From a virus (taxonomy: Duplodnaviria > Heunggongvirae > Uroviricota > Caudoviricetes): a stretch of 28,227 nucleotides of DNA. The notes below the pieces were generated by a model that was not told where the DNA came from, did not search any database, and worked only from the letters and a program-made list of their open reading frames with translations. The stretch is from the IMG/VR virus record IMGVR_UViG_3300045988_125232, positions 1 to 28,227 of that record, one strand, 5' to 3'. Shown here piece by piece: positions 3,464-8,546 of this stretch. Each line of letters begins with the position of its first letter. The stretch's first letter is position 1. Both the position numbers and the translations under genes were made by a program.

Positions 3464-4060
3464 TTAATGATTGTCGTAATAATTAATTGGCTCATCATTT
3501 TTTTGGTCTGGCATAGTTATGGACCACTTTATATTCTTTAGGCTGTTATGTTTTTTATTGACCTTAAGCTCTCTCTTTGCTTCAGAGATAATATCGTCTA
3601 GTAATACTTTTAATTTATCAAGTCTTGACTTGTGGGCATCTATCAACTCTATACTATCAAACTCCCATTGTATAAATAGATTTTCTTCATTTTCAATGAA
3701 TGAACGGATTTTATCCCCACACTCTTCTGTTAAGAATAATGAAGATAGCTCACCTATTCTACTGAGTTTTTCAAGCTCATTAGAGAAAGATTTGCTAAGG
3801 ATTTCATTTTCTTCTTTTGATTTGTAACTAAAGTAGGTTGGGAATTGTGAAGCGTGATGTAACTCATGTTTATACCAATAGTCAGCTGTGTTTTTTAGAA
3901 GATAAACACAGTCAACTAATTGCGTATACAAATCTATTCTTTTGTCCCACCATTTTTCTTTATAATAACGGCCGAGTGCATATCGCGCAGTTAAGTAAGC
4001 TGCGATTGAGCCTGTAACAAGTCCGATAATTACCTTTGATATAAGGTCATGCCAATCCAT
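3464..4060 (-). CDS. Membrane-anchored protein of unknown function (moron; candidate lysogen-expressed exclusion or abortive-infection factor)
   Basis: 198-aa ORF with one N-terminal hydrophobic helix (VIIGLVTGSIAAYLTA), then a charged, Lys/Glu-rich helical body. Visibly AT-rich compared with flanking phage genes, with its own AT-rich upstream region and its own terminator. Confidence 0.7.
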   Translation of the reverse strand: MDWHDLISKVIIGLVTGSIAAYLTARYALGRYYKEKWWDKRIDLYTQLVDCVYLLKNTADYWYKHELHHASQFPTYFSYKSKEENEILSKSFSNELEKLSRIGELSSLFLTEECGDKIRSFIENEENLFIQWEFDSIELIDAHKSRLDKLKVLLDDIISEAKRELKVNKKHNSLKNIKWSITMPDQKNDEPINYYDNH

Positions 4061-4549: not shown

Positions 4550-5224
4550 TTAGGCTTTGATTTTGTATCTTCTTGGTTTTCCTGAGAAAATCACTGTACC
4601 AATTATAGAGCAATTACCGTTGATCTTAATGTAAGGCTCAGGCCAGTTTGGGTTTAACGCTTTGAGATAACGCTGTGTCCCATCTTCTATCAACCTTTTG
4701 AAGGTGGTTTCACCTGTATCGTGCATCAATGCAATAACGTCGTCACCGTGGCAGGCAGGTACTTCAGGATCGACAAAAATCATGTCTCCCGGGCGGTACT
4801 CATCAATCATTGAATCACCTATCACCCGCAAGATATAAGTCATTTCCCCACAGGGGACAGGGCAGGGATACGTTTCTGCTGTGCTCAAATCAACCTCAGA
4901 ATATCCAACTTCTTTCCATGCTCCGGCCTGTACCCATGATATGACAGGGACTAATGTGATTTGTTTATTAGTGATTGAAACATCAGGTTTTTTTGTGATG
5001 TTCGTTGTCTGGTGTTCTTGATCGAGCCATCCGACAGGCAGGTCGAAACATTTTTCGATGTGTCGTGCCATGCTGTCACCGATATTTTTAGTAGCACCAT
5101 CTCCCATAAACCTGCTGGTCTGGGTTGGCTCGCGATCAATCATAGTGGCAAAGGAAGAATTCCCGCCAACACCATCTCTCAGTTTTCTGGCGTTAGACCG
5201 CCGGATGTCATGGATTGTTTTCAT
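4550..5224 (-). CDS. cI: CI-type prophage repressor (HTH plus S24 LexA-like autopeptidase domain)
   Basis: 224-aa ORF. The C-terminal domain carries the Ser/Lys dyad context (VIGDSM ... FKRL) and its end (LNPNWPEPYIKINGNCSIIGTVI) resembles P22 C2 / lambda CI. Divergently arranged against the cro-like gene. Confidence 0.9.
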   Translation of the reverse strand: MKTIHDIRRSNARKLRDGVGGNSSFATMIDREPTQTSRFMGDGATKNIGDSMARHIEKCFDLPVGWLDQEHQTTNITKKPDVSITNKQITLVPVISWVQAGAWKEVGYSEVDLSTAETYPCPVPCGEMTYILRVIGDSMIDEYRPGDMIFVDPEVPACHGDDVIALMHDTGETTFKRLIEDGTQRYLKALNPNWPEPYIKINGNCSIIGTVIFSGKPRRYKIKA

Positions 5225-5239
5225 AACGAAATTAAAACC

Positions 5240-5311
5240 CTTGTACCGTTAAGGTACAAGTATCTTGAAGGTTCATTTCAATCATGTAATATGTACATCG
5301 GAGGTACATAT
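5240..5311. promoter_or_regulatory. Operator/promoter region between the repressor and cro (three dyad-symmetric sites)
   Basis: Dyads read in sequence: CTTGTACC-N5-GGTACAAG, TTGAA-N7-TTCAA and ATATGTAC-N7-GTACATAT. A TAATAT -10-like hexamer and GGAGGT ribosome-binding site precede the cro ATG. Confidence 0.6.
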
Positions 5312-5314
5312 TGT

Positions 5315-5515
5315 ATGAAAGCGTATTGGGACTCTTTAACCAAAGAACAGCAGGGCGAGTTGGCCGGAAAAGTTGGCTCAACACCTGGCTACTTACGGCT
5401 GGTTTTCAATGGCTATAAAAAAGCCAGTTTTGTGCTGGCTAAAAAACTTGAGCAATGCACGTCAGGTGCAATTACGAAATCTGACTTAAGACCGGATATC
5501 TATCCGAAAGATTAG
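5315..5515 (+). CDS. cro: Cro-like HTH regulator (YdaS/Cro family)
   Basis: 66-aa product from an internal ATG with a GGAGGT Shine-Dalgarno; HTH-like segment and conserved LRPD motif typical of YdaS-type Cro analogues. The 167-aa ORF in the track is an upstream extension through the operator region. Confidence 0.7.
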   Translation: MKAYWDSLTKEQQGELAGKVGSTPGYLRLVFNGYKKASFVLAKKLEQCTSGAITKSDLRPDIYPKD

Positions 5516-5546
5516 CAGAACACTTTCAATTTTTAACCACAGAACG

Positions 5547-6116
5547 ATGAGGCTAATCGTGGGTAAGCATCACTGGAAAATAGAAAAACAGCCTGAGTGG
5601 TACGTGAAAGCTGTCAGAAAAACTATCGCGGCGTTGCCGGGTGGTTACGCTGAAGCGGCTGACTGGCTCGATGTAACAGAAAACGCTTTATTCAACCGCC
5701 TTCGTGCAGATGGCGATCAGATTTTCCCGCTGGGATGGGCAATGGTTTTACAGCGTGCTGGTGGCACTCACTTCATTGCTGATGCTGTGGCGCAGTCTGC
5801 AAATGGCGTCTTTGTGTCTCTTCCTGACGTCGAGGATGTGGACAACGCCGATATTAACCAGCGTCTGCTGGAAGTCATTGAACAGATCGGCAGTTATTCA
5901 AAACAGATTCGTTCAGCAATCGAAGACGGTGTAGTGGAACCGCATGAGAAGACAGCAATTAACGACGAGCTGTATCTCTCAATTTCGAAGCTGCAGGAGC
6001 ATGCAGCACTTGTCTACAAAATTTTTTGCATTTCAGAAAGTAATGACGCCCGCGAGTGTGCAGCTCCGGGCGTCGTGGCGTCGATTGCTTCTGGTTGTGG
6101 AGAAACTAACGCATGA
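5547..6116 (+). CDS. Putative CII-like / YdaT-like early regulatory protein (189 aa)
   Basis: Position immediately downstream of cro, same strand; assignment by synteny only. Confidence 0.5.
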
Positions 6117-6291
6117 ACAGTTTAACAACACACTACCGTCGCTCGCAACTGATTGCGCTTCCTGTACCGGGTGGAAAAGCGAAGGTGGAATATTGCTATG
6201 CAGTGAATGTACCAGGTGACAGGGAAATTGTAACCCACAGCTTTGCAGAGTGGGCTGTGGGTGATTTCAACCGGCAGAAGGAGACAGTCCT

Positions 6292-6471
6292 TTGCGACAA
6301 GTTAACCGCTGGTTCAAAGATCACTACGGAGTACCCGTCAGAGTCATTCGTTGGGAGCCGGAAACACAACGGGTTATCTACCTCCGCGAAGACTATGAGC
6401 ATGAGTGCTTCAGCCCGCTCGAACAGTTTCGTCGTAAATTCAGGGAAATAGAGGTCGGTCATGAGCACTAA
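6292..6471 (+). CDS. Small protein (59 aa, TTG start) translationally coupled to the replication gene
   Basis: AAGGAG ribosome-binding site 8 nt upstream of TTG; its stop overlaps the ATG of the next gene. The product (…[35 protein letters not shown]…) is more protein-like than the serine-rich tail of the overlapping 112-aa ORF. Confidence 0.35.
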
Positions 6472-7402
6472 ATTAACCGGCTATGTATGGGATGGTTGCG
6501 CTGCGTCAGGCATGAAATTATCCAGCGTGGCAATTATGGCCCGCCTGGCTGATTTCAGTAATGACGAAGGTGTGTGCTGGCCATCAATTGAAACCATTGC
6601 CCGTCAGATTGGCGCGGGGATGAGTACCGTCAGAACGGCTATCGCACGGCTGGAAGCAGAAGGCTGGTTAACGCGTAAGGCGCGTCGCCAGGGTAACCGC
6701 AATGCGTCGAATGTTTATCAGCTTAACGTTGCGAAGCTTCAGGCAGCGGCATTTTCTCAACTGTCAGATTCTGACCCGTCAAAATCTGACGCATCAAAAT
6801 CTGACCCGTCAAAATTTGATGCGTCGAAATCTGGCAAAAAAGCGGGTTTTCACCCGTCAGAATCTGGCGGGGATCCGTCAGTAAAATCAAAACATGATCC
6901 GTCAGATAAAAAAACTTCTCGTCCGGACGCTTCGCAACCGGACACGCAGACGGCTGAACAGGAGTTTTTAACTCGCCATCCTGATGCGGTTGTATTCAGC
7001 CCTAAAAAGCGCCAGTGGGGAACGCAGGATGATTTGACCTGCGCACAGTGGCTCTGGAAAAAAATCATCGCCCTGTACGAGCAGGCCGCCGAATGTGACG
7101 GCGAGGTGGTTCGTCCCAAAGAACCGAACTGGACAGCCTGGGCAAACGAAATTCGCCTGATGTGTGTGCAGGATGGTCGTACTCACAAACAAATCTGCGA
7201 GATGTACAGCCGCGTCAGCCGCGATCCGTTCTGGTGCCGTAACGTGCTCAGCCCGTCGAAGCTGCGGGAAAAATGGGATGAGCTTTCCCTGCGCTTATCG
7301 CCGTCCGTCAGCACGTACACCGAAAAACGCGAAGACCCGTACTTCAAAGCCAGTTACGACAACGTGGACTACAGCCAGATCCCGGCAGGATTCAGGGGGT
7401 GA
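6461..7402 (+). CDS. Replication initiator (O-like, N-terminal winged-helix DNA-binding domain)
   Basis: 313-aa ORF with an N-terminal HTH typical of phage/plasmid replication initiators (…WPSIETIARQIGAGMSTVRTAIARLEAEGWL…); a repeat-encoded low-complexity linker (DPSKSDASKSDPSKFDASKS) overlies DNA iterons. Confidence 0.8.
   Translation: MSTKLTGYVWDGCAASGMKLSSVAIMARLADFSNDEGVCWPSIETIARQIGAGMSTVRTAIARLEAEGWLTRKARRQGNRNASNVYQLNVAKLQAAAFSQLSDSDPSKSDASKSDPSKFDASKSGKKAGFHPSESGGDPSVKSKHDPSDKKTSRPDASQPDTQTAEQEFLTRHPDAVVFSPKKRQWGTQDDLTCAQWLWKKIIALYEQAAECDGEVVRPKEPNWTAWANEIRLMCVQDGRTHKQICEMYSRVSRDPFWCRNVLSPSKLREKWDELSLRLSPSVSTYTEKREDPYFKASYDNVDYSQIPAGFRG
6761..6845. repeat. Iteron array inside the replication gene (putative origin)
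   Basis: At least four tandem 15-bp units (TCTGACCCGTCAAAA, TCTGACGCATCAAAA, TCTGACCCGTCAAAA, TTTGATGCGTCGAAA), with further CCGTCAG repeats and A-rich tracts out to about 6905. Confidence 0.6.
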
Positions 7403-7404
7403 TC

Positions 7405-7893
7405 ATGAGTCTTTTGAATGAAGTTCAGAAATACATTGAAGCCCATCCGGGGTGTACTTCCGGAGACATTGCGGATGCTTTTGCAGGTTACTCACGGCAG
7501 CGCGTTCTGCAGTCAGCAAGCAAGTTACGTCAGAGTGGTCGTGTGGCTCACCGTTGTGAAGGGGATACACGCAGACATTTCCCGCGCCTGACTGAGAGAG
7601 CGCAGGAGGCGGAACCGCAACCAGTTCGTGAAACCAGACCTGTGCGCAATTTCTATGTCGGCACTAACGACCCGCGGGAGATTTTGTGCCTGACCCGCCA
7701 GGCGGAAGAACTGGAGTCCAGGGGCTTATACCGTCGTGCTGCAACGGTGTGGATGGCGGCATTCCGTGAAAGCCACTCCCAGCCAGAACGAAACAATTTT
7801 CTGGCGCGTCGTGAGCGGTGCTTACGGAAAAGCAGCAAGCGCGCTGCATCGGGTGAAGAGTGGTATCTGTCAGGGAATTACGTGGGGGCTTAA
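7405..7893 (+). CDS. Regulatory protein with a PerC-like C-terminal domain
   Basis: The C-terminal segment AEELESRGLYRRAATVWMAAF matches the conserved PerC/Pch core as I recall it; the N-terminal 60 aa look like a small HTH. AGGGGG ribosome-binding site 5 nt before the ATG (an alternative GTG start lies at 7399). Confidence 0.6.
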   Translation: MSLLNEVQKYIEAHPGCTSGDIADAFAGYSRQRVLQSASKLRQSGRVAHRCEGDTRRHFPRLTERAQEAEPQPVRETRPVRNFYVGTNDPREILCLTRQAEELESRGLYRRAATVWMAAFRESHSQPERNNFLARRERCLRKSSKRAASGEEWYLSGNYVGA

Positions 7894-8546
7894 TGAGTAA
7901 TAAATATTGCCAGGCGCTGGTGGAACTGCGGAACAAACCAGCCCATGAACTGAAGGAAGTGGGCGATCAGTGGCGCACGCCGGACAACATTTTCTGGGGA
8001 ATTAACACCCTGTTTGGCCCGTTTGTTCTGGATCTGTTCACTGACGGTGATAACGCCAAATGTGCCGCGTATTACACGGCGGAAGACAACGCGCTGGCGC
8101 ATGACTGGTCAGAACGTCTTGCGGAGCTTAAAGGTGCTGCCTTTGGTAATCCCCCATACAGCCGCGCCAGTCAGCATGAGGGGCAATACATCACCGGCAT
8201 GCGTTACATCATGAAGCATGCCAGTGCCATGCGTGATAAAGGCGGGCGCTATGTTTTCCTGATCAAAGCTGCCACCAGCGAAGTGTGGTGGCCGGAAAAT
8301 GCAGATCATATTGCTTTTATTCGCGGGCGTATTGGTTTTGAACTGCCTGTCTGGTTTATCCCGAAAGACGAGAAGCAGGTACCGACAGGCGCTTTCTTCG
8401 CTGGTGCTATTGCTGTTTTCGACAAGACCTGGAAGGGACCGGCAATCAGCTACATCGGGCGCGATGAACTTGAGGCATGTGGTGAGGCCTTTCTGGCGCA
8501 GGTTCGCCAGCAGGCGGAAAAACTGGTCAGGGAGATGGCGGCATGA
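7893..8546 (+). CDS. Phage DNA N6-adenine methyltransferase (Dam-type)
   Basis: Catalytic NPPY motif (FGNPPYS) with size and context typical of lambdoid orphan methyltransferases. ATG overlaps the upstream stop (TAATG); an alternative GTG start lies at 7860. Confidence 0.85.
   Translation: MSNKYCQALVELRNKPAHELKEVGDQWRTPDNIFWGINTLFGPFVLDLFTDGDNAKCAAYYTAEDNALAHDWSERLAELKGAAFGNPPYSRASQHEGQYITGMRYIMKHASAMRDKGGRYVFLIKAATSEVWWPENADHIAFIRGRIGFELPVWFIPKDEKQVPTGAFFAGAIAVFDKTWKGPAISYIGRDELEACGEAFLAQVRQQAEKLVREMAA

Follow-up and report, generated by a model that had tools for sequence, protein, structure and literature searches.

The segment 6763-6920 is very probably, judging from its sequence, the replication origin of an SfIV/SfII/SfV/CPS-53-type lambdoid prophage, situated inside the prophage's own O-family initiator gene. 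The arrangement itself is of the known lambda type; here it is found in a family whose inspected records carry no annotated origin. The window, that is, the whole 28,227-nt stretch of DNA that we analysed, is a lambdoid prophage 99% identical to Shigella phage SfIV. Positions 6292-7893 showed 99.1% identity to SfIV and 98% to SfII. A sequence-only reading of the window had placed an iteron array and a probable origin at 6761-6905, within a 313-aa replication gene. These coordinates turned out to be accurate, although the functional unit probably extends to about 6920. The features of the region are collected in Table 1.

Table 1. Positions, in the window, of the proposed origin elements and of the surrounding genes.
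Feature	Position	Strand	Description or basis
Five contiguous 15-bp units	6763-6835		Starts 6763, 6778, 6793, 6808, 6823; proposed iterons for the initiator N-domain
Sixth, spaced palindrome, GTCAGAATCTGGC	6856-6868		Adjoins the GATC boxes
Box 1, GATCCGTCAGTAA	6872-6884	+	Dam site (GATC) plus one palindrome half-site
Box 2, GATCCGTCAGATA	6896-6908	+	Dam site (GATC) plus one half-site
A-rich, least stable 40 bp of the gene	6880-6920		Proposed unwinding region; nearest-neighbour stability scan
Initiator C-terminal tail, YSQIPAGFRG	7370-7399	+	Candidate docking peptide for P-independent helicase loading
S24 repressor gene	4550-5224	-	
CII/CP76-like gene	5547-6116		
DUF4222 gene	6292-6471		
O-family initiator gene, 313 aa	6461-7402	+	ORF, Pfam, PHROG, BLASTP
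yfdN-like (PerC-family) gene	7399-7893	+	Pfam, AlphaFold2, Foldseek
Dam gene	7860-8546		
LexA-like gene, RusA, KilA-N, DUF968, Q			Follow Dam in this order

The tandem 15-bp units proposed in the earlier reading are real: there are six palindromes, five of them at exact 15-bp spacing. Each unit consists of a 13-bp imperfect palindrome, GTCA(A/G)A(A/T)TCTGAC, and a 2-bp spacer, and the array is a series of TCTGAC and GTCAGA hexamers in alternating orientation. Tandem Repeats Finder reported the stretch 6770-6833 with a period of 15 (4.3 copies, 81% matches) and, at a period of 30, with 88% matches. When the palindrome pattern was searched for on both strands of the whole 28-kb window with at most two mismatches, all 11 matches fell within 6763-6868, against a chance expectation of 2.4, and none of 100 shuffles reached 11. 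As expected from inverted hexamers, the single strand folds well beyond shuffled controls (z = -4.8). The palindromes occupy nt 303-408 of the 942-nt gene, in frame, and encode SDSDPSKSDASKSDPSKFDASKS, in agreement with the earlier proposal that the repeats code for a linker of the replication protein.

Two GATCCGTCAG boxes lie 3' of the palindromes, in the A-rich, least stable 40 bp of the gene. They were the only two box matches in the window, where 0.17 were expected. The further CCGTCAG repeats that had been pointed out are also present, at 6854, 6875 and 6899, the last two inside the boxes. The A-rich tracts exist as well, in a modest form: 6880-6920 is 70% A+T, with 50% A on the plus strand, and its dG is -47.5, where the window averages -57.0, which places it in the top 3.8% of the window (z = 2.05). 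The instability of this tract is thus only moderate. No DnaA box (TTWTNCACA) was found near the array, and the window's three matches to this pattern are no more than expected by chance. An Rfam scan of the window returned nothing at the gathering threshold, and no sigma-70-like promoters were predicted in 5200-8000.

Two minor elements of the same region deserve description. All five copies of CCGTCAGA in the 28-kb window lie within 565 bp, and extra copies are found upstream of the array at 6335, 6601 and 6627, all on the plus strand and in other reading frames. The copy at 6335 is in the DUF4222 gene and those at 6601 and 6627 are in the HTH-coding part of the initiator gene; one of the latter two uses the rare AGA codon. 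These outlying copies are kept in Salmonella and Klebsiella relatives and not in more distant ones. The copies at 6601 and 6627 reuse the motif in two other reading frames and looked at first like additional sites, but their codons are not conserved in the homologues from Pantoea, Providencia or Citrobacter, and we treat them as putative. On the minus strand at 6843-6856, between the fifth and sixth sites, CGGGTGAAAACCCG with a T run after it forms a terminator-like hairpin. We rejected it as a functional element since its stem is not conserved at two other loci (L008 and L022).

The 313-aa gene encodes, by homology of its C-terminal domain, an O-family initiator. The predicted protein has a winged-helix N-domain (aa 1-100), a disordered linker (aa 101-166) and a lambda-O-type helical C-domain (about aa 167-280). 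It matched PHROG 391, 'replication initiation O-like', with an E-value of 1.6e-135. BLASTP aligned its C-terminal domain with lambda O (1e-25, alignment over aa 70-277), and the C-domain matched phi80 gp15 with 2e-25 and 35% identity. The lambda O N-terminus gave no BLASTP alignment with the initiator. Instead, the N-domain matched Pfam HTH_36 (4.2e-11), and the only Pfam hits to this part of the protein were HTH_36, GntR-like and MarR-like winged helices; by sequence, the protein therefore falls outside the strict lambda O family, which is defined by the Pfam Phage_rep_O N-domain. In the AlphaFold2 model a wHTH fold covers residues 1-100, pLDDT is below 50 for 103-166, and helices span 189-278. 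Foldseek grouped the N-domain with MarR/ArsR winged helices; against the PDB it matched only the N-terminal winged helix and gave no match for the C-domain, and a PDB sequence search found no solved O-like structure. We also considered a plasmid iteron replicon of the Rep_3/RepA type, in which 17-22-bp iterons flank or lie apart from the gene of a Rep_3-type initiator and are not part of it. This was rejected, because Pfam gave no Rep_3 match for the initiator, only a weak sub-threshold RP-C match, and because the repeats, spaced at 15 bp, are internal to the gene.

The closest parallel is the lambda origin in gene O. Both genes combine an N-terminal DNA-binding domain, a linker and a homologous C-domain, and in both, dyad-symmetric repeats are encoded mid-gene in the inter-domain linker and are followed by an A/T-rich tract. 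The lambda iterons, at nt 349-433 of 900, occupy the same place as the array, and the A-rich tract is placed relative to the repeats as the lambda AT-rich tract is (PMC7466680). The differences are equally clear. The N-domain here is HTH_36 rather than the lambda O type. Where lambda has four sites of about 19 bp spaced at 20-24 bp, this gene has six of 13 bp spaced at 15 bp, and its A-rich tract contains two GATC boxes. No P gene is present, and the C-terminal tail reads IPAGFRG where lambda has NTDWIYGVDL. At a spacing of 15 bp, each dyad would lie almost across the helix from the next, compared with about two turns in lambda, and any O-some must therefore have another geometry. The lambda O-like arrangement claimed in the sequence-only reading is supported by C-domain homology, by array position and by the co-variation and synonymous constraint described below. 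The likeness holds for the architecture and the C-domain, but not for the DNA-binding module.

Other systems fit the same comparison. The phi80 gene 15 origin has the same architecture and C-domain family, with four annotated gp15-binding sites at the equivalent position (nt 365-441 of 909), but its N-domain is of the lambda type, its 21-bp repeats read CCGAAAACGGGAAAA.CTTC, and a P-like gene 14 lies downstream. The Stx phages 933W and P27 have six iterons, and gene 18 of P22 and phage L has four repeats of about 20 bp or six of 11 bp (PMC7466680; PMC8022706). As in the present family, related phages vary in the number and sequence of their iterons, which can be read off the initiator gene (PMC7466680; PMC8022706); unlike here, a P or DnaB-type helicase gene stands beside the initiator in these phages. 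CPS-53 yfdO-yfdN, SfIV, SfII and SfV carry the same gene family at 98-99% DNA identity, and K-12 CPS-53 retains query positions 234-942, the array included. In oriR of plasmid P1, GATC-containing heptamers lie in an A/T-rich region next to the iterons. By analogy, the conserved Dam sites in the presumed unwinding region adjoining our repeats may be a similar feature, although our region has just two boxes, set in another sequence context.

A period of 15 bp is a multiple of three, and the case for a DNA element therefore rests on relatives rather than on this lineage alone. The competing explanation is that the repeats, without any role at the DNA level, do no more than encode a low-complexity, slippage-prone linker made of SKSDP repeats, the origin being elsewhere or undefined. 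The period, the repetitive peptide, the predicted disorder of the segment and a copy number that differs among strains, as slippage would give, all agree with this explanation. To be set against it is a survey of 79 loci with the initiator's C-domain, one genome per species, of which 74 have full-length genes. A mid-gene tandem array was present in 69 of the 74, centred at 25-65% of the gene, and array density was 15 times higher in these genes than in their flanks (1.18 versus 0.077 per kb). Across the 74 relatives, repeat period and sequence co-varied with N-domain type, and seven types were found. The type of this window goes with 15 bp and the unit TCAAAATCTGAC; MSSKLHGLVWEG with 15 bp and the unit GTCAAATATTGAC; MSLL..PIVIN with 23 bp; MSRIFEIVQAMSG with 22 bp; MSMELMV with 24 bp; MNTAEV..RSNRMENQK with 12 bp; and the lambda-O-like type with 21 bp, corresponding to the gp15-binding sites annotated in the phi80 GenBank record. 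Periods of 22 and 23 are not multiples of three, and arrays of these periods at the equivalent place thus cannot encode protein repeats. Two mosaic relatives, E. coli UTAK-22 and phage mEp460_4F5, have a near-identical C-domain from about 6915 but an unrelated N-domain, and at the equivalent place they carry 5.4 copies of a 23-bp repeat, GGTCAAAATGACACGATCCATCG. The junction at about 6915 is sharp and falls just past the proposed origin (L001, 2999-3000; L002), so that recombination exchanges the N-domain plus iterons as one cassette. That an exchanged N-domain in mosaics brings its own repeat type with it is not what a mere peptide linker would give, and the rule that the repeats go with the N-domain holds across all seven types.

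Codon choice points in the same direction. Homologues from Pantoea, Providencia and an uncultured Enterobacteriaceae MAG have the same unit, TCAAAATCTGAC+3, and divergent unit variants occur in Citrobacter (L009) and at one further locus (L018). Serine was encoded by TCA or TCT in 151 of 191 linker codons versus 64 of 206 elsewhere, and lysine by AAA in 62 of 63 versus 111 of 172, statistics that are inflated by recent unit duplication and shared ancestry. The comparison of conserved amino-acid columns was the sole codon test to hold phylogeny constant, being made within the same 15 homologues from nine genera, and it gave a codon diversity of 0.25 in the linker versus 0.54 elsewhere (Mann-Whitney p = 0.002). 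The box codons GAT CCG TCA GTA are conserved at synonymous positions in the 15 homologues of nine genera, and the codons of both GATC boxes are almost invariant. Residue changes that leave the DNA near the consensus are tolerated (Ser to Phe or Cys, and the P/A/T position on the spacer). Constrained synonymous positions combined with tolerance of motif-preserving non-synonymous changes argue against selection on the peptide alone, for which the dyad symmetry inside each unit would moreover be meaningless. Overall, the sequence comparisons favour repeats that act at the DNA level and not purely as peptide, and we regard the linker-only explanation as very improbable. Comparing iteron number across relatives had been suggested as a check on the origin. 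Copy number varied by whole 15-bp units, from 2 to 8; six sites were found in 76 of 84 near-identical copies, and the rest had five, seven or eight. The shortest variants fetched, from Salmonella (L168) and Klebsiella (L169), have two sites each, next to the boxes, namely the sixth copy (6856-6868) and one neighbour. In lambda, two iterons adjoining the AT-rich tract suffice in vitro (PMC7466680).

A DNA-level role could still be one of control. On this account the repeats are initiator sites for autoregulation, titration, incompatibility or exclusion, with unwinding and helicase loading taking place elsewhere. Iterons of plasmids also act in copy control and incompatibility, the CCGTCAGA copies outside the array would suit such a role, and the AT-rich tract is weak. 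Nevertheless, the early region contains no other repeat cluster and no other AT-rich, repeat-flanked site. DNA-level conservation is seen for both boxes of the A-rich segment, and more distant homologues have not kept the outlying CCGTCAGA copies. The layout, in addition, copies the lambda O origin (PMC7466680) and the annotated gp15 sites of phi80. Control sites with an origin elsewhere are therefore unlikely, and an origin at 6763-6920 remains the preferred reading.

Binding, unwinding, origin activity and the helicase route are what we infer from the sequence, along the following lines. The six 13-bp palindromes would be bound by the N-terminal winged helix of the initiator, a step that would turn the array into an O-some-like nucleoprotein complex. 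This complex would destabilise the adjacent A-rich segment 6880-6920, which carries the two conserved GATC half-site boxes. The lambda-O-type C-domain would then recruit the replicative helicase. With no homologue of P, DnaC or DnaB in the phage, the helicase would have to be the DnaB of the host, with host DnaC as its most likely means of delivery, and the IPAGFRG tail at the C-terminus is a candidate for the helicase-loading contact. The peptide encoded by the origin would be a disordered linker, its sequence largely dictated by the DNA sites. The two conserved Dam sites in the presumed unwinding region might add methylation/SeqA control of firing. Dam-type methyltransferase genes are often found one or two genes downstream of such initiators (in the window and at L015, L168 and L169), and methylation may be linked to origin firing.

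The sequence-only reading had also stated that no helicase-loader gene of the P or DnaC type follows the initiator and that the next gene is a PerC-like regulator. Pfam, PHROG, tblastn and a comparison with P proteins all bore this out. The yfdN-like gene overlaps the stop codon of the initiator gene, and its product matched Pfam PerC (7.5e-09) and showed no similarity to lambda P. The AlphaFold2 model of this product combines a wHTH with a three-helix (PerC) domain, and Foldseek matched it to winged-helix regulators only. Searching the whole window by tblastn with seven P-like proteins (lambda P and six from the surveyed loci) and two DnaC-like proteins gave no match, and neither PHROG scans of 16 early-region ORFs nor the PGAP annotation of an identical prophage revealed a loader. 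As far as sequence can tell, the locus is thus not a lambda O/P module, which has a P-, DnaC- or DnaB-like gene beside the initiator. Among the 79 loci, the downstream gene was P-like in 43, YfdN-like in 8, a methyltransferase in 6, DUF977 in 4, DUF1627 in 3 and DnaC-like in 2, with other genes in the remainder. An O-type initiator without an adjacent loader is therefore common. A review of phage replication modules by Weigel and Seitz reportedly describes 'initiator-solo' modules; that term occurred in none of the papers listed by our literature search.

The position of the yfdN-like gene suggests a further alternative, namely that its product is a non-homologous replacement for lambda P that docks on the initiator and delivers DnaB. 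The gene sits where P would be, with a stop/start overlap, and YfdN-like genes follow O-like genes of four N-domain types in eight species. However, the protein resembles P or DnaC neither in sequence nor in fold, looking instead like a winged-helix/PerC regulator, and relatives of the same tail class that have no YfdN carry a methyltransferase, DUF977, DUF1627 or DnaC-like gene. A role as P substitute seems quite unlikely to us, and delivery of host DnaB by host DnaC remains the favoured route. At other P-less loci, different small winged-helix genes (DUF977, DUF1627) occupy the YfdN position.

The last 10-25 or so residues of the initiators (window; loci L004-L083) fall into three tail classes, and in 78 loci these sorted perfectly with whether a P-like gene was present. 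All loci that have P had a Trp-rich tail, either HWNSPEAWENTL or the lambda O-like NTDWINGV; three EWNTDEGWRGML tails belong to this Trp class. The 36 loci lacking P had IPxGFRG in 20 cases, including SQIPAGFRG of the window, and AWxxIWxQAxE in 16. On a tree of the core C-domain, P presence changed about eight times independently, with the tail changing in step. Part of this sorting could come from the tail being physically linked to the DNA downstream. Even so, the GFRG tail occurred with at least six different downstream genes, two of them phage DnaC-like, and its pairing with a DnaC-like gene was also seen in a related E. coli element. We infer only that the GFRG tail may serve a P-independent, DnaC-type route. 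More broadly, and tentatively, O-family initiators may form helicase-recruitment classes set by their last 10-25 or so residues, the Trp-rich tails (WNxxExWE/NTDW) always going with P and the IPxGFRG and AWxxIWxQAxE tails always without it, and IPAGFRG may be a docking peptide for direct use of host DnaB-DnaC or another host factor; we consider this generalisation less likely than not. If it were true, the initiator gene would be a one-gene replication module.

The initiator gene was matched in 2725 of 5426 complete E. coli genomes, about half, the matches including the truncated yfdO-yfdN remnant of the K-12 prophage CPS-53 (KpLE1). The SfIV/SfII-type module belongs to viable, inducible phages and is also present in the Shigella serotype-converting phage SfV (PMC3851460). 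Database records that we inspected for the SfIV-type/CPS-53 gene family contain no origin feature and label the gene 'primosomal protein', 'helix-turn-helix protein' or 'replication protein O', and the SfIV and SfI genome papers mention neither origin nor iterons. The module is thus carried by about half of the complete E. coli genomes and by the serotype-converting phages SfIV, SfII and SfV, yet its origin is unannotated in the inspected records. A known origin with its 13-bp sites would offer a handle for mapping prophage replication after induction and would be useful for building lambda-dv-like vectors. The sites would also predict replication specificity, and hence compatibility among co-resident prophages.

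A few observations were made beside the main analysis. A 15,977-bp circular 'plasmid' record (NZ_CP148542.1; L171) represents a prophage early region and resembles a natural lambda-dv; its genes are a repressor, cro, a related O-like gene with 15-bp repeats, DnaC-like, DUF1627, DUF977, RusA and Q. We did not take it as evidence for autonomous replication, because its O-like gene is frameshifted in the record. In the window, a 198-aa ORF on the minus strand (3464-4060) lies between the early-left genes and the repressor; its sole match was phrog_17948, of unknown function, and moron or exclusion genes typically lie at such a position. Beside the integrase gene (457-1620), a short TGATG / TGATGGGATG tandem repeat occupies 243-274 and is possibly near the attachment site.
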